DNA of 64,000 nucleotides from Fistulifera solaris (taxonomy: Eukaryota). The stretch's first letter is position 1, and every line of letters starts with the position of its first letter. The notes beneath the pieces were generated by a model. The model was given only the letters and a program-made list of their open reading frames with translations. It had not been told where the DNA came from and made no database searches. This document shows, piece after piece, positions 5,109 through 59,484 of this stretch. The stretch lies in contig AP026136.1 of NCBI GenBank assembly GCA_030295235.1, positions 1,240,001 through 1,304,000 on the forward strand, written 5' to 3'. The position numbers and the translations under genes were made by a program.

Positions 5109-6053
5109 TTATGAGCCTCGGCTGCTTGTTACTTTCCTTCGAGCGGCATTGTACAGGGTTGTCAAACGTTTACGGTAGAACTTCCTCTCGTCTTGGCCCC
5201 GAATGAAGAGCTCGCGAAATTTGTTGTTTGAGAAAGAGCCGATACCGAATGCTGGAAGGATACGTAAGCCACGTGCAAATGAAACAGTCGCAAACTCTTT
5301 TCTGATCGTCGCAAAGCGATCGGCAGTCGTCGCTTCGGGAAAATTGAAATAGTCCATGGCGTGGATGTGTAAAGGAGCGGTTAATATTTGAGCACTCACG
5401 GGTATCGCTAACGCCATGGTCAATTCCGCCGTATTTCGTTCCCAGCCTCGCTCATGTTCTAAATACTTGGCTACACTCGGAGCCGCGTAGAATGTTGCAT
5501 ACATGGTAGCCGTGTCGCGTGCGGCAAACAGGCCGAACGTTCGTAACGGAGTTTTGCGTTTCGCAGCCTCAGGACAACCAAAAACTTTGGCAAATACGGA
5601 ATCTCTCCACGCCAATAAAGAAATGTTTGCCACAGCTGATGCCGCAACCTTTCTTTGCTTGCGTGCTTCGTCGTTGCGTATCTTTTGAACATCTAAAAAC
5701 ATTTCGGAAAGATTCGCAACAGCATAGGTACCGAAGTAGACAGCAAACGTTAAACGGAACGACAAACCTCCGAAGAATACGCGCGGCTTTGCTACCATCT
5801 CGTGAGTAGCATTCCTTATCGCGATGAGAAACTTTGCAGAGCCCGAGATATCTTGCACAATGCACTTGTCAATGATCGAAACTAAGGGAGACACAAGAAA
5901 GGACGCAGCAAAAGCGCACCCAATCTCTTTCGGAGCGCGTGTCTTGGCAGCCTCGATAAAATCATGAGGTCTTACATCCGAAAAGATGAAGGCGCGGTAC
6001 CACAAATCTTCCTGTTCCTCCTCGACTTCGAACTCCAATTTTTTGTTGCTCAT
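5109..6053 (-). CDS. Uncharacterised mitochondrial-carrier-like membrane protein, paralog A
   Basis: Intact 314-aa ORF with SPLVSIIDK, APLHIHAMDYFN and ARGLRILPAFGIG motifs. Two paralogs lie in the window. Confidence 0.75.
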   Translation of the reverse strand: MSNKKLEFEVEEEQEDLWYRAFIFSDVRPHDFIEAAKTRAPKEIGCAFAASFLVSPLVSIIDKCIVQDISGSAKFLIAIRNATHEMVAKPRVFFGGLSFRLTFAVYFGTYAVANLSEMFLDVQKIRNDEARKQRKVAASAVANISLLAWRDSVFAKVFGCPEAAKRKTPLRTFGLFAARDTATMYATFYAAPSVAKYLEHERGWERNTAELTMALAIPVSAQILTAPLHIHAMDYFNFPEATTADRFATIRKEFATVSFARGLRILPAFGIGSFSNNKFRELFIRGQDERKFYRKRLTTLYNAARRKVTSSRGS

Positions 6054-6526
6054 TTTTGTTACTACGTAAGTGTAGTTTGTAGATCTAGTATCGCGGCGAA
6101 AAAGCAGGGGATGATTGAATTAATATGATGATAACCGAGCCAAAGAGGAAACAGAAAACGCTGATAATGATATGCTTACTTGTTATGATCGACCCTTTGA
6201 TCATCTCAAGCCGATACTTGTAAAGGTAGCAAGATGCCGGAAGGTGCCGAAGAAAAATTCTCTCCCTTCGAACAATAAAACTGCGAAGAAATACATACGT
6301 ATAACGTACATACAAAGTAGGGACGAAACGATTTAGAGTTAGCGGCACAGAGGACTCATGACTGATTATGTTGTAGTCATGGCAAAAGTGAGTACTTTTA
6401 GTCTTTCTTTCTTCTTTTACAATTGATCCTTTGTTAGACGAGGTCCGTGCCGGTCCGAGCTCGTGCTTGACTCCGAAGTCCGAAGGCGGACACCCTGGAC
6501 CCTGGGGAGTCTGTCAAAAGTTCATA

Positions 6527-6795
6527 ACGTCATCACTGACGTAAGTGATAGATTTGCAGTAATTATCACAGACCGGAATCAAATGACCACGTGGCATGGG
6601 CAATGCGGCACTGATAGATTGATCTGATTGGCTTAGAAACAGCACAAATCAAATCATTTGGGTAGACTTGGTCAAGTATTACCTCATCGTTTCCGTCGGA
6701 AGGAAATCTTCAACTTGTTATGTGGTGACGTGGCGTCGACGTGGAAAATAATCGTACATACACAAACGAGAGGATTGTAGTGGAAATCTACGTCA
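6527..6795. promoter_or_regulatory. TGACGT/ACGTCA (bZIP/CCRE-like) cluster in a divergent promoter
   Basis: ACGTCA at 6527 and 6790; TGACGT at 6537 and 6726. Confidence 0.5.
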
Positions 6796-6882
6796 CACCA
6801 CATTCATTTTTACATGGGCACACCATTCTTTCCACAACTTTGTCAAACGTTTCAAGATTTTGCATTTCTCTGATCAATCAAG

Positions 6883-7827
6883 ATGAACAACAACCCGAAA
6901 CTGGAATTCAGTGCTGAAGAGGAGGAAGAGGCCCCTTGGTACCGCGCCTTCATCTTTTCGGATGTAAGACCTCATGATTTTATCGAGGCTGCCAAGACAC
7001 GCGCTCCGAAAGAGATTGGGTGCGCTTTTGCTGCGTCCTTTCTTGTGTCTCCCTTAGTTTCGATCATTGACAAGTGCATTGTGCAAGATATCTCAGGGTC
7101 AGGCAAGTTCATAGACGCTATTAAGAAAGCGTCTCATGAAATGGTTGCGCAGCCACGCACTTTCTTCGGTGGCTTGTCCTTCCGTTTGACATTTGCTGTC
7201 TATTTCGGGACCTATGCTGTTGCCAACCTTGCTGAAATGTTCCTCGATGTACAAAAGATTCGCGATGATGAGACCCGTAAGCAAAGAAAGGTCGCGGCGT
7301 CGGCTGTGGCGAACATTTCCTTGCTAGCATGGCGTGATTCCGTCTTTGCCAAGGCGTTCGGTAATGCGGAGGCTGCTAAACGGAAGACTCCCTTGCGTAC
7401 CTTCGGTTTGTTTGCTGCCCGTGATACAGCCACCATGTACGCTACATTCTATGCTGCTCCTCGGGCTGCCAAGTACTTGGAGCATGAGCGAGGTTGGGAG
7501 CGTAACACAGCGGAATTGTCCATGGCGTTGGCGATTCCTGTTGCCACTCAAGTCTTGACTGCCCCGATTCACATTCACGCCATGGACTACTTCAATGTTC
7601 CTAAGGCAACTACCGCTGAACGCTTTGCTACAATCAAGAAAGAGTTCAACACCGTCTCTTTCGCACGCGGTCTGCGTATTCTTCCCGCATTCGGTATCGG
7701 TTCTTTCTCCAACAACAAATTCCGTGAGTTGTTTATCCGGGGACAAGACGAATCCAAGTTTTATCGTAAGCGCTTGACGACCTTGTATGATGCCGCGAGA
7801 AGAAATACTACCAAGGCCTCCAACTAG
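6883..7827 (+). CDS. Uncharacterised mitochondrial-carrier-like membrane protein, paralog B
   Basis: Intact 314-aa ORF, highly similar and head-to-head to paralog A. Confidence 0.75.
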   Translation: MNNNPKLEFSAEEEEEAPWYRAFIFSDVRPHDFIEAAKTRAPKEIGCAFAASFLVSPLVSIIDKCIVQDISGSGKFIDAIKKASHEMVAQPRTFFGGLSFRLTFAVYFGTYAVANLAEMFLDVQKIRDDETRKQRKVAASAVANISLLAWRDSVFAKAFGNAEAAKRKTPLRTFGLFAARDTATMYATFYAAPRAAKYLEHERGWERNTAELSMALAIPVATQVLTAPIHIHAMDYFNVPKATTAERFATIKKEFNTVSFARGLRILPAFGIGSFSNNKFRELFIRGQDESKFYRKRLTTLYDAARRNTTKASN

Positions 7828-21811: not shown

Positions 21812-22789
21812 TCATGATAGATGTTGCTTTGTGCGTCTCTCTTGTTCCTTGGCTTTTCGGGTCGCCTCATCCATAAGAATAGTAATCTTGCGATTCAATA
21901 ACTTGTTTTCATTATGACCACGAATAAAGAGTTCTCGGAGTTTGTTGTTGGAGAAGGAACCAATTCCAAAAGCTGGAAGGATTCGTAATCCACGGGCAAA
22001 GGCTACCGTATGGAATTCATGAGCAATGATGGCGAGGCGATCCGTCCAGGGCAATGGTTGAGGCCGATTGAAGTAATCCATAGCATGAACGTGCATGGGT
22101 GCTGTCGCAAACTGTGAAACAACAGGAATGCCTAACGCCATGGAGAGTTCCGCTGTATTCTTTTCCCATCCGCGTTCGGTTTGTAGGTACTTGGCAGCTC
22201 GGGGTGCCAGATAAAAGGTAGCGTACATCGTGCAAGCATCTCGTGCGGCGAAAAGACTAAGCGTACGGAAAGGTGTTTTCCTTGCATTCGCCGCTTCGCT
22301 CCCGTACACACGAGCAAAGACTGAATCGCGCCACGCCAGGAGAGAAATATTAGCGATAGACGACGCTATCACCTTGCCTTGTTTCCGTTGCTCGTCGTCT
22401 CGAATCGTTTTTACGTCAAGAAAAAGTTCGGAAAGATTCGCCACGGCATATGTTCCAAAATAGACGGCGAAAGTCAAGCGGAACGAAAGACCTCCGAAGA
22501 ATGTGCGCGGCTGAAGAATCATTTCGGTGGACGAATGTTTCAAGGCCGCCGCAAACGTTCCGTGTCGCGAAATATCTTGCACAATGCATTTATCAATGAT
22601 CGAAACTAAAGGAGACACAAGAAAGGACGCAGCAAAAGCGCATCCGATCTCTTTGGGAGCACGACTCATCGTCGTCTCGATGAATCCGTGTCGCTTAGCA
22701 TCGGAAAAGATAAAGGAACGCCACCAAGGACCTTCTTCACGGGGTTCAGTGAAGAATCGCTTGCTGATTTTACGTTTGAGCTCTTCCAT
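21812..22789 (-). CDS. Uncharacterised mitochondrial-carrier-like membrane protein, paralog C
   Basis: Same motifs as paralogs A and B but more divergent. ATG at 22789 (MEELKRK). Confidence 0.75.
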   Translation of the reverse strand: MEELKRKISKRFFTEPREEGPWWRSFIFSDAKRHGFIETTMSRAPKEIGCAFAASFLVSPLVSIIDKCIVQDISRHGTFAAALKHSSTEMILQPRTFFGGLSFRLTFAVYFGTYAVANLSELFLDVKTIRDDEQRKQGKVIASSIANISLLAWRDSVFARVYGSEAANARKTPFRTLSLFAARDACTMYATFYLAPRAAKYLQTERGWEKNTAELSMALGIPVVSQFATAPMHVHAMDYFNRPQPLPWTDRLAIIAHEFHTVAFARGLRILPAFGIGSFSNNKLRELFIRGHNENKLLNRKITILMDEATRKAKEQERRTKQHLS

Positions 22790-49797: not shown

Positions 49798-52700
49798 ATG
49801 ATACGGCAATGCTTACTGTCGTCACGTCATCCAAAAGCGAAAGCAAATCACCGTCGCATTCTTTCGAAACGACCGCTCGCGGCTTCTAGTAGTAATCACA
49901 ATCACAATCACAATCGTCACAAAGATAATTCGTCAGATGACAACCAAAGAAACACCTCAAATACAATCACAAATGATGGTGACGATAACAAGCAGAAAGA
50001 AATGAATCACATTATGAAAGCATTCTTTCAAAATCGTAACACCGCAACAAATACTTCCGACAAATCAAGTCATCGCCCTTTCCATCACAACAATAACAGA
50101 AATCACGATAACCGGAATAAACAAATTCAACAGCAGAATTGGCGGTCTTTGCTGCCCAAGCAACAGCAAAACAATCAGACGCCATCCTTGCAGAAGGATG
50201 CGACTCCTCCTTCCTTGACTCAAACGACAAACTCCAACAATACGAATGATTCGATACGGGCCTTTTTTCAAAGTACTTCGGCACGTAAGACGGCTTTGTC
50301 GCAGCCACAACAGCAGCCGCCGCATCAACCTTCTTCTTTGTCGAGCAGTCGAGGGAAATTTCCTTGGGATCTCAAGCCGTTACAAAGGCCGTCGACCGAC
50401 GCGACTACTCCTCGTACTGACTTTGCATCCGTCTTGAACAAATACAAGACGTCTCCTTTGAACATGGAAGAGCAAGCTGAGTCATCTGCTTCAGTCACCG
50501 TAACATTACCGCCAAATACGACGACGACATCGTTACCGAGACCCCCGCCGCGTTCCGGAGTCGGATTGGCGGCACCAGCAAACCCACAGCCGTTCACGTC
50601 GCCTCTCTCCGAGATGATTCGTAAGATGCAATTGGCTCAGCAGCAGAAGCAGCAACAACAACAGCAGGAAAGTGGAAATGCCAATACAATGAATCCTTTG
50701 GCGAATGAACCGCGTTGGAGGACCAGTCCGCTGCGTGCGTTGCGCCATTCGTCCCGATTGAACAATCAGCAGCACTCAAACAACGGCCATAGTAGCAGTG
50801 TCAGCAAGGCCAATGATTTTTTGAAAGCTGCCGACTCGGAACAAACACGACGACGCCGCCCACGCAAACGACAACCCATTCAAGTCGTACTGCCTTCCTA
50901 CAATTTGTCTATTACGGAAACATCTCTCTTGTTTCGACAACCCAAACGTCACATTGAGCGAATCTTGCGACAATTGGGTGTGGGGCAAGTTACCTCACTG
51001 GATCGTGAGCTACTGGAGTTGGTGGCGAGTGAATGTTCGCATTTGCAAGTTGTGGATCAACTGCAAGACAAGGATCATGATTCCGATGAGGATGAGGCAA
51101 TTCGAATGAGTTGGCCGGTGAGACCGCCAGTAGTCACCGTCATGGGACATGTCGATCATGGCAAGACAACTTTAATGGATGCTCTACGGCGGAGAGCACC
51201 CGGTAATAAGATGACGACGGGATCTTCGAAAAATAACAGCAGCAAGTCCGAAAAGAAGAAAGGAAAACCAGCCAATGTTGGAGATATCGCTGGTACGGAA
51301 GCAGGAGGTATCACTCAAGTCATTACTGCGTTTCAAGTAGCACTTGAAGGTTCAGATGCGGCGGTTACTTTTTTGGATACACCGGGGCACGCTGCGTTTC
51401 GGAATATGCGAGAATCGGGTTTGGAAGCCGCTGATGTTATTGTTCTAGTTGTCGCTGCCGAAGATGGACTGGCCGCACAATCTCTGGAGATACTCCGATT
51501 CTATAAGAGTCTTCTGGAACAAAATGTAGACATCTCCTTGGTGGTTGCTATGAACAAAATCGATCAACCAGGAATCAATCTTGAAGAATGTCAATATCGT
51601 TTAGAAAACCAACTTCTTCAAGAAGGCCTTTTGATTGAAGGAATGCCGCAGACCGATGGAGATTGCTTCGGGTCGCCAGTACCTCTGTATCCCATTTCGG
51701 CAAAAGAAGGGACTGGTTTAGATGATCTCATTGAAGGTTTAATTCTTCAAAGTGAAGTAATGGATCTTCGTTCTCCGACGGAAGAACCAGCCAATGGAAT
51801 CTTGCTTGATGCACGAATTGAGAAGGGGCTGGGGGTTGTAGTGGATGCTATTGTACGAAGTGGCAGTCTGAAGAAGGGCGATGTGGTAGTGAGCGGTGAG
51901 CACAAGGGACGAGTGCGAATGTTACAATCGACACAAGGCAACACACAGGTCAGTGAGGCGTCAGCGTCTCAACCCGTGCGTATCATGGGGTTTGACAGTT
52001 TGCCGACCGCCGGTGATCTATTCCGCGTCGTGGAATCCGAAGAAATCGCACAAGAAGTAATAGAAAAAGCTGCCGCGTTAAAGGATACTGCGGAAAATAA
52101 ATCAGCGGTGATAGCAGCTGTTGAAATACAAGGTTCCGGTAAGGACACACTGGATAAAAACTGGCAAAGCAATCTCAAAGAAAAGTATGATATCGAGGAG
52201 GCAGATTCTAGCATCATCCGTGTACCAATGGTGCTCAAAGCAAGTGCTGATGGCACTCTTATGGCACTGCAGGAAGCATTACACTCATTAATGGCGACTT
52301 CGCAATATAAACTGCGTCTCGATATAGTTCAAATGGCAGTGGGGCCTGTATCGGAGAACGACATGCAACTCGCTAATGAGAGTGGAGCCATGGTACTGGG
52401 TTTCGATGTGAAAGTTCCTTCGTTGAACGAAACAGAAGTTCCTGTCTTTCAGAGTAAAGTCATTTATACCTTGCTCGACAGCGTTCGTGATGCTATGGCT
52501 AAGCGCTACTTGCCACCTACAATGGTCGAACAAATTCACGGCAAAGCGGATGTACAAGCAGTGTTTTCTATAGGCGGTGTCAAAACTAAGGTCGCCGGGC
52601 TGCGCGTGCTTCAGGGACGGCTGCATCGCCAGAAAGTGAACGGGGTTGCGATCCAGTATCGTGTGTTGGGGAAAGACAAAACAGTTAAGGTTGCCAGTGG

Positions 52701-52851
52701 AAAAATAATTAGCTTGAAGCAATTCAAACAGGACGTAGACGAGGTTGGAAGTGGTCAAGAATGTGGCTTGGCATTGGAAGGATACGATCAATATGAAGAC
52801 GGCGACATTGTAGAGTGTTTTTCTGTCTCCTCAAAGTATGAATTCAGCTAA
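49798..52851 (+). CDS. IF2: Organellar translation initiation factor IF-2
   Basis: RPPVVTVMGHVDHGKTT, EAGGITQ, FLDTPGHAAF, NKID and GQECG motifs, with a long N/Q-rich N-terminus. Confidence 0.95.
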   Translation: MIRQCLLSSRHPKAKANHRRILSKRPLAASSSNHNHNHNRHKDNSSDDNQRNTSNTITNDGDDNKQKEMNHIMKAFFQNRNTATNTSDKSSHRPFHHNNNRNHDNRNKQIQQQNWRSLLPKQQQNNQTPSLQKDATPPSLTQTTNSNNTNDSIRAFFQSTSARKTALSQPQQQPPHQPSSLSSSRGKFPWDLKPLQRPSTDATTPRTDFASVLNKYKTSPLNMEEQAESSASVTVTLPPNTTTTSLPRPPPRSGVGLAAPANPQPFTSPLSEMIRKMQLAQQQKQQQQQQESGNANTMNPLANEPRWRTSPLRALRHSSRLNNQQHSNNGHSSSVSKANDFLKAADSEQTRRRRPRKRQPIQVVLPSYNLSITETSLLFRQPKRHIERILRQLGVGQVTSLDRELLELVASECSHLQVVDQLQDKDHDSDEDEAIRMSWPVRPPVVTVMGHVDHGKTTLMDALRRRAPGNKMTTGSSKNNSSKSEKKKGKPANVGDIAGTEAGGITQVITAFQVALEGSDAAVTFLDTPGHAAFRNMRESGLEAADVIVLVVAAEDGLAAQSLEILRFYKSLLEQNVDISLVVAMNKIDQPGINLEECQYRLENQLLQEGLLIEGMPQTDGDCFGSPVPLYPISAKEGTGLDDLIEGLILQSEVMDLRSPTEEPANGILLDARIEKGLGVVVDAIVRSGSLKKGDVVVSGEHKGRVRMLQSTQGNTQVSEASASQPVRIMGFDSLPTAGDLFRVVESEEIAQEVIEKAAALKDTAENKSAVIAAVEIQGSGKDTLDKNWQSNLKEKYDIEEADSSIIRVPMVLKASADGTLMALQEALHSLMATSQYKLRLDIVQMAVGPVSENDMQLANESGAMVLGFDVKVPSLNETEVPVFQSKVIYTLLDSVRDAMAKRYLPPTMVEQIHGKADVQAVFSIGGVKTKVAGLRVLQGRLHRQKVNGVAIQYRVLGKDKTVKVASGKIISLKQFKQDVDEVGSGQECGLALEGYDQYEDGDIVECFSVSSKYEFS

Positions 52852-52945
52852 GCTTAAAGACGTTAAAGGTTAAATAGCGGATGAATTCATTTTATTTTGA
52901 AAAAAATTGCAAAGCAGTTGACATAAATCTAGTGTTTTTCTTTAA

Positions 52946-54495
52946 TTAAGATTCTTCATCGGAGGATGTATCGGCGACAGTGTTGCTCGATTTAAAGACA
53001 GAGATGAGAGAACGAACCTCGGCAACACTTGCCGATCCATTTCCGAGATCCAAAGCAGCAAACAATGCGTTGAAGTCTCCATCTGACATGGTTCCCATTT
53101 TGCCGGAGTCTACAATGTTTTTTAGCTGTGCCCGACTAATTAGTTCACCGTACTGAGAGAGTTCGTCCTTCATTCCGGCCACCGAAAGTTGGTTGGCGGA
53201 CTTTCCAATAGTGATTCCTTGAGCCACACGTCGTGCGAAATCCTTTCGTGATCCTTCTTTAGCCGATTTCATTGCGTACATGTGATACGCGGCAAATGCG
53301 ATGAAAAGGGCTCCAACAGCGATGGCAAACATGCCTACAGCAAAGCCCGCACTCTTTTCGTCGCTGCTCTCCGATATCTGTTCTTTAACTGGCTCACTCT
53401 CTCCAGAAGGGGCACTCGCTGGCTGATCAACGGGCGACTCAGCCGGCTCGTCGTCGGGGGTTTCACCTTCAACCAAGACCTTGTAGATAGGAGAGGAGTC
53501 TACGATAGTTTCGCAGTTGTCGCATGTACGGCATCGGTGAATGATTTCACGTCCGAGCAACATTTGGGAGGACGAGATGTGGAGAGCCTTCGTAGGACGC
53601 AACTGTGGCGTGATTGCATGTCTCAGTGTCTACGTAGCAAAGGATCAATTTCAGCAATCGGTCCATTTGAGTTGTAGAAATCATCATTGGAGCATCGAGC
53701 AAGTTCCAGTTGACGGCTTCCGTGCAGGGAGGGGTAGTGAGACCTCCCTTGTATGTGTACACGCCGAAGTCCTGGTTCGTGGGAAGATCGTAAACGTTCA
53801 CGGCAGAGGTAGCATCCACCATGGCGAGCTCTTCAACAGCACCTGATCCTACGGCCGGGCAAGTGATTTTTTGTTGAACGGCAACAAAGTCGTCTTGCAA
53901 ACGACGTCCTTCGGGTACTGCGCACGTTGTTTCAGCGGCGTTAGCCACCTTCTCCCAGCCACGAAGGAAGTTCTCAAAAGGGCATGATCGGCGACGTCAG
54001 CCCCAGAAGAGATCATCGTTCCGAATACGGCGAAGGACTCGCCGGTCGACTCTGGTGAACAACATGAAGCTCGGCTTCGTAGTAGGCTCCTTCGATAGTG
54101 TGTTCCGAAGAGGCATGAACATGAAACTGAAGAGCGTTGAACTCGTTGGGAGTGTGAGGGATCTTCATCGTACCGAAAGAGCAGTTATCACCCTTGACGA
54201 CTTCAACACCGTTCTTGGTGATGCCGTACTTGAGGTCTTCCCAGGTGCAGTCTCCTCCAGTGAAAGTGTACGCACTCATGTCAGTATCGCATTGTTCCTT
54301 GTTGTAGATAGGCACGGGGGATTGCCCATACCCGCTCGTCATGTAGGTGCTTCCGCACTGATTATCTTCGGTATCGACAAAGGCCCAATGATTGGGGCCG
54401 AAACCGCTTTCTTCGAAGTAAGTGTAGAATCCTTGGGCGGCGTTAGAGTGCTTTGCGGCGATAGCCGCAAGGAGAACCGAGAACTGAAGCTTCAT
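52946..54495 (-). CDS. Alpha-carbonic anhydrase with signal peptide, TM helix and EF-hand-like cytosolic tail
   Basis: QSPV, QFHVHASSEH, ELHVVH and GGLTTPPCTE motifs. TM segment FAVGMFAIAVGALFIAFAAY, then DFNALFAALDLGNGSASVAEV. Indels near 54050, 53978 and 53565-53586. Confidence 0.85.
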
Positions 54496-56161
54496 GGTGA
54501 GAAATGAAGAGGAAGGTGAGAGAATAATATTGATGCTGCGAGTAGCAACGACTTGGAGAAAAAAAATGTGCGCCGAATTGCGGATGCACAAGGTAGGGGA
54601 GTTGCGTGAATGCATATGTATGTCGTATCTTGGTCAGTGTGACATAATAAGTAGACCTGCAAGAGACCTCGCGGACTTGATGACGTCTGAGGTTGAATTT
54701 CGTGGCCGTACGTCAGCCACATGTATCGCCATGAATTTTCGGTTTCTTTACAAATTAAGTCTATACCAAACTAGGAAGATGATACTGACGTCGTGACGTT
54801 TCAACTTGAATTTCGGATTGAAGTTTTGCAGCCAATCGGTGTTTAGTGACGTGTTACGATATCTACCAGCAAGCTGTCCATCTTTATCTACGTGAGTTCC
54901 ACGAAGTTGAAAATGCATGGCGATACATGTGGCTGACGTACGGCCACGAAATTCAACCTCAGACGTCATCAAGTCCGCGAGGTCTCTTGCAGGTCTACTT
55001 ATTATGTCACACTGACCAAGATACGACATACATATGCATTCACGCAACTCCCCTACCTTGTGCATCCGCAATTCGGCGCACATTTTTTTCTCCAAGTCGT
55101 TGCTACTCGCAGCATCAATATTATTCTCTCACCTTCCTCTTCATTTCTCACCATGAAGCTTCAGTTCTCGGCCCTCCTTGCGGCTATCGCCGCAAAGCAC
55201 TCTAACGCCGCCCAAGGATTCTACACTTACTTCGAAGAAAGCGGTTTCGGCCCCAATCATTGGGCCTTTGTCGATACCGAAGATAATCAGTGCGGAAGCA
55301 CCTACATGACGAGCGGGTATGGGCAATCCCCCGTGCCTATCTACAACAAGGAACAATGCGATACTGACATGAGTGCGTACACTTTCACTGGAGGAGACTG
55401 CACCTGGGAAGACCTCAAGTACGGCATCACCAAGAACGGTGTTGAAGTCGTCAAGGGTGATAACTGCTCTTTCGGTACGATGAAGATCCCTCACACTCCC
55501 AACGAGTTCAACGCTCTTCAGTTTCATGTTCATGCCTCTTCGGAACACACTATCGAAGGAGCCTACTACGAAGCCGAGCTTCATGTTGTTCACCAGAGTC
55601 GACCGGCGAGTCCTTCGCCGTATTCGGAACGATGATCTCTTCTGGGGCTGACGTCGCCGATCATGCCCTTTTGAGAACTTCCTTCGTGGCTGGGAGAAGG
55701 TGGCTAACGCCGCTGAAACAACGTGCGCAGTACCCGAAGGACGTCGTTTGCAAGACGACTTTGTTGCCGTTCAACAAAAAATCACTTGCCCGGCCGTAGG
55801 ATCAGGTGCTGTTGAAGAGCTCGCCATGGTGGATGCTACCTCTGCCGTGAACGTTTACGATCTTCCCACGAACCAGGACTTCGGCGTGTACACATACAAG
55901 GGAGGTCTCACTACCCCTCCCTGCACGGAAGCCGTCAACTGGAACTTGCTCGATGCTCCAATGATGATTTCTACAACTCAAATGGACCGATTGCTGAAAT
56001 TGATCCTTTGCTACGTAGACACTGAGACATGCAATCACGCCACAGTTGCGTCCTACGAAGGCTCCACATCTCGTCCTCCCAAATGTTGCTCGGACGTGAA
56101 ATCATTCACCGATGCCGTACATGCGACAACTGCGAAACTATCGTAGACTCTTCTCCCATCT
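53485..56161. repeat. Long inverted repeat: ~1.25-kb arms (53485-54740 and 54909-56161) with a 168-bp spacer
   Basis: The mirror-image ORFs are near-identical, and only a few differences were seen by eye. Confidence 0.95.
54681..54968. promoter_or_regulatory. Seven CCRE-like TGACGT/ACGTCA elements in the bidirectional CA promoter
   Basis: Sites at 54681, 54710, 54786, 54794, 54847, 54934 and 54963. Confidence 0.7.
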
Positions 56162-56175
56162 GGGTCCTAGCCTAA
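55153..56175 (+). CDS. Alpha-carbonic anhydrase, inverted copy lacking the TM/EF-hand tail (predicted soluble, secreted)
   Basis: Same catalytic domain as the left copy. With indels near 55597, 55670 and 56079 corrected it ends ...IVDSSPIWVLA* (TAA 56173-56175). Confidence 0.75.
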
Positions 56176-56476
56176 AGTTCTTATTGTGAATACCTATAGA
56201 AAATAGCTTAAATATTTTCATACAGCTCTCTCTTCGTATTTAAGCTCTAGTAAGGCATGCTTGGCGGTTTGCTTTCCTCGGAAGATGTTGGTCGTTACGC
56301 TTGAAATGGTTTTGAATACCATTAGTCTACGTGTTTCGGTGGAAGCCCATGAACGATGCTTTATCATGACTCCTGCATTCCAACTTCGAGGTCTTTTCAT
56401 GTAAGTTCTAATCAAATACGTTCCTGTTGACGTTGCTATTAGATATATCTCTTTGTTTACATATTTCATACTATCT

Positions 56477-58064
56477 CTACACGTAATCGCGTTCTTTCTC
56501 TGAATGCATCTTTCCTGGCGGCTCATTACGGATGTGCCTGCTTGCTAGCTCACATACAACAGCTCCTGTCAGTGGCTTCTTTAGGGCCTCGCTGCTCATC
56601 GACGATAACTCTTCCAGGGTGACGTAACGATCGATTTTTGGCCTTATATATCGCGAGGAAAGCATTTCCCACAAGTACATCATATCAGCCCTTACTTGGT
56701 CACCGTTAACGCGAACATGCTCCGCAAAAATCAAGCAAGGTCGCTCTTTTCATCTTAGATATTTGCAGTTGTTCGACCATTGAACTGATTCCTTGAGCTT
56801 CGTCCTGCGGTTTGGATACACAAACTAGGCGACCGTGCTTAGCTAAAGCTTTTCGAAGCGCTTTGAATTTATTAGGAAAGCAATAATCCACCACAATGTC
56901 AATCGATCCCTCTACGACCCATCCCCAATCATCTAGCATATGTACTTGTTGATCCTTCATTTCGCCTTTTCCGTGTACAAAGATTTCCTCCACACCCGCC
57001 AGTTTCGCCATGCGTATTAGTGCTCGTGACTCTACAGTCAGTCCTCCTGTTATTAATAGCCTTCTCCCCGTCAGGCAGGTGATACTGTAGCAATAGGGAC
57101 GTGCTCTACCGTGATGCAAGGCCGTGAAGGCAGGCAGGTAAGCTGACATCAGACTTGCTACATCGGACGAATCCACTTGATCAGGCACGGGCCACAATCG
57201 ATCCGATGGAATGGATACAAGTTGCGAATTCATTGTCCACTTGGCAATTGCTGCAACACGTGTGCCTACCTCCAAGCCGTACTGCTCTGCTATCGCTGCA
57301 TCACATTGCCGAATGACACCGACAAAATTGGTGCCATACTTTTCACTAGACGATAATTCCGAAAATGAGTCATCAAACGAAGTGAACGCCGTAGCTTCGA
57401 CGGCCACAATAACATCATGATTTGCCGCTATCGTATCTTCCCGCTCCCCGTCTAAATTGCCAAAGAAGGAGCTCCAATCGCAAAACACGCTCGTGCAATC
57501 GTGAGGTTGCGATAGCTCTTGTGTCGGTGCTACATTTTCAAGGACTTCTGGTTCTGGTACAAAATCGTCTGAAAGAACTCCTCGTACGTCTTGTCGTTGT
57601 TCATCTGACTTTGTTTCTTCTTTTCGTTCTATAATGCCGTCATCCTGCTGTTGTTGGCTTTGTTCACGTAGATCTTGTTCCAAATCACAGAGAAAAGAGC
57701 CCCAATCACACATCATGTTTGTGCAGTAATGCGTGTTTGCAAAATCTTCGTCCACGACATTTTCTTCCCCAAACTCTACCGATGAGAGGGAGTCTACATC
57801 GTCGTCGTCGTCGTCGTCGTCGTCCTCTTCCTCTTCCGACGATGACGAGACAGAGGAGGATGACGAGGAGGAGTATGTCGTTTCACTGTCTGCTCGCGCA
57901 CGGTATCGATAGCGCGATGACGATGACTGTATTGATACTCGTCGGTGCTTGACATTATCTCGCCCGTCGTAAGAACTGGATCGATCAAAGGATGAATAGT
58001 TTTCTTCTCCGTAGTTTCTCCCTTCTTTGTTTCTGAGCGTGTAATGATTCTGTCGTGACAGCAT
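56477..58064 (-). CDS. MDR/quinone-reductase-like protein with long acidic N-terminus
   Basis: GTNFVGVI, VGTRVAA, YLPAFTALH, LLITGG and IDIVVD motifs. Indel near 56730. Confidence 0.7.
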
Positions 58065-58533
58065 TTTTGCGGGTTATTGCGTAATACTCGTTCTTGCTAT
58101 CGTACCAAGCGATTGATACTTCCCTGCTTTGAAATCAAAAGGATATACTTCGTTGGTCGACGCTTGTTGGTGATTCTTTATATGTCTTGCTCGAACGTTG
58201 AGTCTTCTTCGTTATGATGGTGGAGTTTCAAATTTTGAACGTTCCAACGGACGAATTTCGTGGTGGCGTTCGGACACGCAACTCTGCATTTAATTTATAT
58301 GCGAAACGTGAAGATCTTTTAACTTTAACCTTAAATCGATTTACCCTTTCGAATCTTATTGCGACACGATACTACGTACTACACGTACCAAGCACCAAAT
58401 CGCCCGATCGAAAAAGATGACGACAATGGAGTACAAGTAATAATTGAAATCTTGCTTCATTCGTATTTGTTGATGCGCTATAACTCGCAGCCAGTTCTCT
58501 CTCAATACAATAAAGCGCGCAGAGCTAAACAGC

Positions 58534-59484
58534 ATGGCAGTTTATTACCAACAAAAGTTTCTAGACGTGTTGAAACTGATTCACAAATTAGAACCATCAC
58601 CCGGTTTTTCGCAAGCTCTTGGAACAACCTTTCATGATTTGGCTTCTTCTTCTTCGTCATCATCATCGTCGTCGTCGTTGTCTTCCATACAAGTCGAAGA
58701 CAAAGGATCGATAGTACGCGTAGAGCTACCCGTTTCCGGCGCCTTGTACGTAAAAAGTAAATCAATTACGCTTTCGACTTACATCGCGATTATGGATGAT
58801 TTGAAGACTTATTCTCTCATGACAGTCGATGGAGGGCGTCCTGGTGTTTCTGTATCTATGAATATGGAAGCAACGGGCCTGTCGTTATCATCCGTTCAAC
58901 GACTGGCGATTACGGCACGGACCCGTAAAGTAGGACGGAATTTAGGCTTCACATCCGCCGAAATCCGAGATGCGGCAACGAATCGCATGATCTGTCACGG
59001 TTCACACATCAAATTCTTGCCCATGGGATTTCTAAGCGATTATTTATTACAGTACGGATGGCCAATCATTCAATGGTGGTATGGATTGCCGCACTTTCAG
59101 CCGCCTGTGTCACAAAAGGAACGCCCTTCCCTGCACGAAGTCATGTCGACCTTTGATTCCAACACCGGATCCTTTCGTGTCAAGCCTCATCATGCCAGTT
59201 TAGGAGGCCCCATTCATGGAGGCTGCCAAGCTGTTTTGATGGAAATGGCAGCGTCTACAGTGGCCGAATCAGCATTGCCGGGATGTTACTTGCAAAGTAT
59301 TTCCGTTGAATATCTGGCCAAACCATCATGTCCGCTTGTCGATACTCAAGTACGAGTGGTGCATCAGGAATCCAATTTCTTGACGTTAGAGGTTCTGCTG
59401 CTATGTAAAGGCAAAATAAAAGCGGAAGGAATACTCAAGTACATGAAGATGGATACGTCTTCGAAATTACAACGGTCCGGTTGA
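58534..59484 (+). CDS. Double hotdog-fold acyl-CoA thioesterase
   Basis: RPGVSVSM, KVGRNLGF, PIHGGCQAVLME and SVEYL motifs. Confidence 0.8.
   Translation: MAVYYQQKFLDVLKLIHKLEPSPGFSQALGTTFHDLASSSSSSSSSSSLSSIQVEDKGSIVRVELPVSGALYVKSKSITLSTYIAIMDDLKTYSLMTVDGGRPGVSVSMNMEATGLSLSSVQRLAITARTRKVGRNLGFTSAEIRDAATNRMICHGSHIKFLPMGFLSDYLLQYGWPIIQWWYGLPHFQPPVSQKERPSLHEVMSTFDSNTGSFRVKPHHASLGGPIHGGCQAVLMEMAASTVAESALPGCYLQSISVEYLAKPSCPLVDTQVRVVHQESNFLTLEVLLLCKGKIKAEGILKYMKMDTSSKLQRSG

Follow-up and report, generated by a model that had tools for sequence, protein, structure and literature searches.

In the 64,000-nt stretch of the Fistulifera solaris genome analysed here (contig AP026136.1, positions 1,240,001 to 1,304,000; hereafter the window), two alpha-carbonic anhydrase (CA) genes lie head to head in a palindrome with near-identical arms. 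We consider it reasonably probable (about 0.6) that they are a real pair of paralogues whose arms are maintained by gene conversion and whose shared reading-frame breaks are under-calls of the assembly. According to this explanation, the host would be a diatom with a genome of the raphid-pennate type, and both genes would be transcribed outward from an intergenic region of 657 nt. What the two genes have in common, from the proximal upstream DNA through the signal peptide to the end of the catalytic domain, would lie in the inverted arms, and they would differ only at the outer edge. Here, the left gene would run on through a linker and a single membrane helix to a tail, giving an anchored CA, and the right gene would stop 4 codons beyond the arm edge to give a soluble CA. 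The tract of arm-to-arm conversion would end at 53484/56162.

A repeat search of the window recovered the palindrome as three collinear inverted blocks of 982 nt (100% identity), 181 nt (99%) and 100 nt (98%). Gapped alignment of arm against arm, with 1248 of 1256 columns identical, delimited a left arm of 1256 nt (53485-54740, minus strand), in which ~245 nt of upstream sequence precede the part of the long gene that encodes the signal peptide and the entire CA domain, and a right arm of 1253 nt (54909-56161, plus strand). Between them lies a unique central spacer of 168 nt (54741-54908, no strand) with the hexamer TGACGT at 54786, 54794 and 54847. In total, the arms differ at five substituted positions and by two indel events. 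Two mismatches are synonymous, at 53495/56151 (TCC/TCT) and 53489/56157 (CCT/CCC); the mismatch pair at 54475-6/55172-3 (GTT/GCC) exchanges Val for Ala in the signal peptide, and a further mismatch is found at 54734/54915. The indels comprise a 1-nt length difference in an A8/T7 run at 54566 and a dinucleotide present in the left arm only, an additional AG at 53585-53586 ((AG)2 versus (AG)1 as read on the plus strand; the gene is on the minus strand). A preliminary description of this DNA had reported near-identical arms of ~1.25 kb with upstream DNA, signal peptide and catalytic domain, as well as the TCC/TCT, CCT/CCC and signal-peptide V/A mismatches and the unique 168-bp spacer; all of these were recovered by the alignment or found in the sequence. 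An inverted repeat of 1.25 kb at >99% identity is far beyond chance, and elsewhere in the 64 kb there is just one inverted pair of similar length, with an identity of 79%. Past the arm edge, blastn and tblastx revealed no significant decayed homology beyond ~15 nt. The TAA stop of the short gene aligns with a Glu codon of the long gene, which is suggestive only.

The long-form gene extends over 52946-54495 on the minus strand, with its stop codon at 52946-52948 by translation, and encodes a signal peptide, a CA domain, the motif HRCRxCxxC, an acidic/Pro-rich linker, a membrane helix and an EF-hand-like tail. The short-form gene (55153-56175, plus strand; TAA stop at 56173-56175 by translation) encodes the signal peptide of the long form, with Ala for Val, and the CA domain, and ends in ...SSPIWVLA. 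The two ATGs enclose the common intergenic region (54496-55152, 657 nt). Past the arm edge, the short form stops after 4 codons and the long form extends for ~180 codons. The continuation of the left gene and the stop of the right gene just after the domain had been described before and hold, but only when the frame breaks treated below are read through.

Judged by their sequences, both copies are alpha-carbonic anhydrases, for which CO2 hydration is only predicted. Pfam PF00194 matched the right copy with 42.9 bits (N-terminal piece) and 43.8 bits (C-terminal piece) and the left copy with 42.9 and 43.4 bits (cut-off 27); P0001, a relative from outside the window, reached 91.8 bits. Both copies contain QFHVHASSEH, ELHVVH and GGLTTPPCTE, that is, the zinc ligands H-x-H and E-x-H and the TTPP turn, which align via P0001 with those of chain 4x5s_A. 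Among relatives that bear a name, the nearest are from diatoms (Fistulifera, Epithemia), and the seven proteins of the diatom clade treated below are 58-93% identical to the first 160 residues of the window's CA. The hydrophobic N-terminus MKLQFS[V/A]LLAAIAAKHSNA is a putative signal peptide, recognized by eye without a predictor. The long copy would be a membrane protein of type I topology, its tail predicted to be cytosolic and its catalytic domain to lie on the luminal or outer side, and the short copy would pass through the secretory pathway in soluble form.

The evidence for gene conversion comes from a distant relative. P0002 (343 amino acids (aa)) ends in the identical ...SSPIWVLA, and because so distant a protein shares this ending, we take the short paralogue to be old and to predate the split from the P0002 lineage. 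The CA domain of P0002 is 80-82% identical to either window copy and 80% identical to P0001; over the last 31 residues of the protein, identity to the right copy rises to 90%. P0001 itself is a long form of 511 aa with a CA domain 91-92% identical to that of the window. At the DNA level, the domains of the long and the short copy share ~99.4% identity; the paralogues within this genome are thus more alike than the window's short copy and its orthologue P0002 (80-82% in protein). Taken together, an old short paralogue and near-identical arms imply, on sequence grounds and with one outside short form as the basis, that the arms are kept alike by arm-to-arm gene conversion, i.e., concerted evolution.

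To examine the arrangement, contigs from four public runs (X1-X4) were aligned to 52000-57000; the records and differences cited here belong to a larger set, with a further 53 pieces and 271 differences. X1 contributed 87% of the sampled words and possibly represents the source organism; X1, X3 and X4 were tentatively guessed to be RNA, but the cover of X1 is even across the spacer and intergenic DNA and looks like DNA. X2 is a metagenome from another study with a diverged relative, and has no cover at 53336-53669 and beyond 56175. Both outer edges of the palindrome are bridged in X1. Record 4 (53276-53525, 0 differences, depth 18.9) joins 41 letters of the left arm to 209 letters of flank, and record 8 (56121-56796, 0 other letters, depth 21.3) joins 41 letters of the right arm to 635 letters of flank. 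Both records break off exactly 30 letters from the outermost arm-specific mismatch (53495/56151), on its inner side. This is expected if both arm versions, each with its own flank, are present in the reads; the word size of these contigs is presumably 31 letters, which fits the text of the tool. In X1, the spacer has a depth of 17.7-21.1, about one haplotype copy. The flanks have a depth of ~35 for two haplotypes, with versions at 16.4 and 18.7, and mirrored arm bins sum to 48-83. The preliminary description had argued against a fold-back artefact, for which half the read depth over the arms would speak; the arms are instead at about twice the flank depth, the spacer is at about single-copy depth and both outer edges are bridged, all in agreement with it.

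X1 also contains a second version of the locus. The flanking genes at 52000-52744 and 53072-53303 occur in two versions of similar depth (16.4 and 18.7), with differences mostly at third codon positions; the diverged flank version, record 2, has 72 differences in 742 nt (~9.7%) and a depth of 18.7. Among the differences listed, those of the second version are synonymous in five of eight tail codons and fall on the third position at 20 of 29 sites in the convergent IF-2-type GTPase gene (49798-52851), whose stop lies 95 nt from that of the long CA gene. At two of three amino-acid changes, the second version has the residue of P0001. Since its differences are mostly synonymous and two of the three amino-acid changes match P0001, we regard the second version as a functional, P0001-like homeologue or allele. 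A second arm version, record 7, has 17 differences in 262 nt (~6.5%); its depth of 34.1, compared with 18.7 for record 2, hints that the second version also has two alike arms. At 52161-52296, X2 contains the diverged version only. These data suggest a genome that is hybrid, allodiploid or highly heterozygous. The earlier proposal of an older duplication homogenised by conversion is thereby strengthened on two sides, by P0002 with the same ending yet only 80-82% identity in the CA domain and by a diverged arm version at about double depth.

Several observations weigh against a functional, conversion-maintained pair. As assembled, both copies are frame-broken three times each, and the CA domain is spread over three frames. 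The frame jumps fall at matching places in both arms, after ...ELHVVHQ, after ...ADHA and before QMLLGRE... (left copy near 54052, 53975 and 53566-53586; right copy near 55594, 55668 and 56077), the last one being unequal in the two arms owing to the 2-nt indel. All five relatives fetched have an uninterrupted frame through the three sites, and the three common sites are single-letter runs one base too short. At the first (A to AA, 55594-55595, plus strand; mirror site 54052), an A is added behind 55594 in X2 (42.1/42.1) and a T behind 54052 in X1 (56.9/56.9) and X4 (3.81/3.81). At the second (TTTT to five T, 55668-55672, plus strand; mirror site 53975), a T is added behind 55668 in X2 (42.1/42.1) and an A behind 53975 in X1 (56.9/56.9) and X4 (4/4). 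At the third (CCC to CCCC, 56077-56080, plus strand), a C behind 56077 in X1 (62.1/62.1, two contigs) and X2 (20.2/20.2) restores ...STSRPPQMLLGRE... Because independent contigs carry the missing base at all three sites, the breaks common to both arms are assembly errors (homopolymer under-calls) and not mutations, and the frame of the right copy is restored once the contig bases are added. The preliminary description had missed the frame breaks; it had also held that a truly frameshifted right copy would speak against it, and here the contigs restore the bases.

The additional AG at 53585-6 is a different matter, as no correcting row was found for it among the contig differences listed. If real, it would shift the long copy out of frame ahead of its final CA strand, anchor and tail, a true frameshift of the kind that the preliminary description had considered for the right copy. 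A true 2-nt AG slip would make the left gene of this haplotype a recent pseudogene, and function would remain only with the short gene and with the second haplotype's long gene, a scenario that we regard as unlikely but by no means far-fetched. All proven assembly errors here lie in homopolymers, which this site is not, and the second, P0001-like long version in X1 could cover the function. In addition, the X1 depth of bin 53503-53669 is 19.7, of which the listed records account for ~7 by our own arithmetic, and this hints at a contig that may lie on the left arm across this bin and match the assembled sequence there with no indel. The depth argument is, however, indirect for the AG, the relevant contigs not being among the listed rows. 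Moreover, the 205-codon frame downstream is open, and its last ~60 residues differ from P0001 by one residue; any break of the long copy must therefore be very recent.

The contigs also have their limits as evidence for the arrangement. None spans a whole arm (the longest listed is 809 nt), and the linkage of both outer edges to one centre consequently rests on copy counting. Depth summed over contigs does not amount to a copy number, and because single-copy values scatter from 12.7 to 24.3, depth was used only for the rough statement that the arms have about twice the depth of the flank. A zero-difference arm contig, record 5, has a depth of 22.7 compared with ~35 expected for two identical arms, and X1 may be the very sample behind the window's assembly and so not independent of it. 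An assembly artefact, in which a single CA gene was folded back or haplotypes or homeologues were misjoined, would draw on the missing contig across an arm, on an error-prone assembly with at least four homopolymer errors in 5 kb and on a second genome version ~10% diverged. We nevertheless consider it very improbable, because the flanks hold different unique genes on each side and the short ending exists as a real gene elsewhere (P0002); in addition, the word-based contigs cover the spacer and both outer junctions at a depth close to single-copy, and the arms at roughly twice that. A young duplication without gene conversion, with arms alike through recent copying, would explain their >99% identity and the lack of decayed homology beyond ~15 nt past the edge. 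Yet P0002 has the derived short ending with a CA domain 18-20% diverged from both window copies, and under a recent origin the same ending would have to arise twice. The diverged second version seemingly also has two alike arms, and we judge a young duplication to be improbable. Against the main explanation stands the rarity of the short form, P0002 being the only short form among 30 relatives at E <=1e-60, and a search for further short-form fragments over the junction gave no candidate. TGACGT, finally, is a 6-mer, and its window-wide count of 50 was reached by 3 of 100 shuffles.

DNA of relatives was also sought in metagenomes. The first scan matched 22 stretches, of which none was confirmed. 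The second matched 36 stretches and gave six loci. Their identity is 41-54%, which makes them too distant for testing the palindrome; one of them (L006) belongs to a 54.5-kb contig, and the contigs of the other five measure 1.4-2.9 kb.

The centre of the palindrome contains a cluster of seven TGACGT/ACGTCA hexamers (54681-54968, no strand), of which the inner arms contribute two mirrored pairs and the spacer the other three. Seven copies in 288 nt compare with 0.22 expected from the window-wide density, and the three in the spacer with 0.13 (Poisson 3e-4); no other 300-nt window in the 64 kb has so high a density. TGACGT is also the core of general basic leucine zipper and cyclic AMP (cAMP) response element sites. 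The cluster resembles the elements CCRE-1 (TGACGT) and CCRE-2 (ACGTCA), which, together with CCRE-3 (TGACGC), are given as CO2/cAMP-responsive in a Phaeodactylum CA promoter in the excerpted text of PMC4915529, citing Ohno 2012 and Tanaka 2016. These hexamers cluster upstream of a CA gene in both diatoms; the Phaeodactylum promoter belongs to another species and another CA class. The TGACGT-rich centre possibly co-regulates both genes, perhaps in response to CO2/cAMP, and both would be expressed.

A different form of the centre is present in one contig of X1 (depth 17.1) and one of X2 (depth 11.2), each joining 54705 directly to 54931/54930 with 30 letters on the shorter side. Here 54706-54718 mirrors 54931-54943, and the letters between the two sides of the junction are undefined in the contig data. 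This form, lacking 225 nt (the spacer and the inner ends of the arms), would be a near-perfect palindrome of ~2.4 kb with a loop of 13-14 nt. Both runs show this form at roughly single-copy depth, and it may accordingly represent the second version's centre. Long eukaryotic palindromes with such short loops are expected to be very unstable. One could go further and view the palindrome as a conserved but labile regulatory module, in which conversion, by holding the catalytic module and the proximal promoter identical, keeps anchored and free CA matched in enzyme properties and, through the CCRE-rich centre, in CO2/cAMP response, and in which the centre is naturally polymorphic; we offer this tentatively and hold it to be rather unlikely as a whole.

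Beyond the CA domain, the long form would be anchored by a membrane helix with the core FAVGMFAIAVGALFIAFAA (53288-53344, minus strand; mean Kyte-Doolittle value 2.43 for the best 19-residue window), followed by a Lys/Arg-rich stretch. An AlphaFold model of the 205-aa C-terminal piece, built from an alignment with seven relatives that are 38-79% identical to it, contains a continuous helix at residues 68-116 and a four-helix domain at residues 126-199 (52967-53188, minus strand), with a predicted local distance difference test score of 84-93 over residues 120-197. Foldseek matches of this domain were individually weak (E 0.1-0.5), and almost all were EF-hand proteins. With VIA-align, calmodulin, centrin, S100 and calpain domains gave Z of 6.5-7.5, below the Z of 8 advised for helical folds, and root-mean-square deviations of 2.0-2.6 A over 63-75 residues. 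Pfam returned no EF-hand match up to E 5 and no family for the tail; its best match, a domain of unknown function at E 0.1, was treated as chance. By eye, the loops DSGKMGTMSDGD and DLGNGSASVAEV lack the canonical Ca2+ pattern of EF-hands. The model thus suggests that the predicted cytosolic tail of ~110 residues is EF-hand-like in fold, and no claim of calcium binding is made. Three other proteins (P0013, P0015 and P0016, 788-816 aa) carry a CA domain of this type together with several Pfam EF-hand families, and the pairing of CA and EF-hand appears to recur in diatoms.

The architecture of the long copy, from signal peptide to tail and including HRCRxCxxC, is that of a diatom alpha-CA clade of seven proteins (P0001 and P0003-P0008), with which it shares the tail motifs AYH, KSxNQLS, YGE and SGKxG...DGD...LFAALDxGxG. 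P0004 and P0007 are named 'carbonic anhydrase' from Fistulifera solaris by their source; P0001, P0003, P0005, P0006 and P0008 are unnamed. Unlike the window's pair, the clade includes no short form (0 of 7). In animals, anchored and soluble CAs are likewise separate paralogues, CA IX, XII and XIV being membrane-bound and CA VI secreted. The animal membrane-bound enzymes and the long copy would have the same type I topology, predicted here for the latter, namely an outer catalytic domain and a single membrane helix, and the CA XII and CA IX domains match by sequence (E 7e-12 to 1e-8). The PDB matches of P0001 cover residues 9-320 only, which is the CA domain; the anchor and tail of the long copy have no homology to animal CAs. 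The animal genes are dispersed and, unlike the window pair, are not known to be palindromic or homogenised.

Near-identical adjacent CA duplicates that respond to CO2 are known in Chlamydomonas (CAH1/CAH2 and CAH4/CAH5); the inverted arrangement reported for CAH4/CAH5 was looked up and not confirmed. Unlike the window pair, CAH4/5 are of the beta class and mitochondrial, and both copies have the same ends. A closer structural parallel is provided by sex-chromosome palindromes, whose arms are kept alike by arm-to-arm gene conversion according to the excerpted text of PMC6790999. As described there, they share with our locus gene-carrying inverted arms >99% identical, a unique spacer and structural variability; our locus is ~1000 times smaller, and its arm edge falls inside coding sequence, where the ends differ. 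The palindromic pair is therefore of a familiar kind and would not surprise a specialist. Our literature search found no report of a diatom CA palindrome or of a CA with an EF-hand tail.

A large part of ocean carbon fixation is due to diatoms, and CAs have a central role in their CO2 uptake. The locus would be a compact natural case of one catalytic module in anchored and free form, with a boundary of concerted evolution inside coding sequence and a candidate CO2-responsive divergent promoter. Homopolymer errors break real genes here, and gene models in this assembly need read-level correction before pseudogenes are called; models elsewhere in the assembly probably need the same correction.

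Such an error also affects a neighbouring gene. At 56726, a run of five A contains one A too many (X1 21.3/21.3, X4 3.9/3.9); with this over-call corrected, a 452-aa open reading frame (ORF) without Pfam match (56706-58064, minus strand) gains ~85 codons, to ~56477, and is convergent with the short CA gene. An added T behind 55079 (X1, 29.6/82.6) was considered as a T7 to T8 correction and rejected, as it lies 3 nt before the run. A zero-difference X1 contig at 55051-55305 links the additional T behind 55079 to the Ala (GCC) signal peptide, a combination absent from the window.

An Rfam search of 50000-59000 gave no matches. Elsewhere in the window, a second, older head-to-head pair is located at 5109-7827 and consists of two 314-aa ORFs (5109-6053, minus strand; 6883-7827, plus strand) with arms that are 79% complementary. 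It has no Pfam family, and an Atlas feature search yielded only a weak lead to the mitochondrial carrier family. Its 842-nt spacer contains four TGACGT (6527, 6537, 6726 and 6790), and a partial third copy is found near 22314-22738 (within 21900-22738). Finally, GTC/TCG triplet runs at 57784-57840 and 58639-58695 form acidic/Ser-rich coding repeats in genes neighbouring the CA pair.

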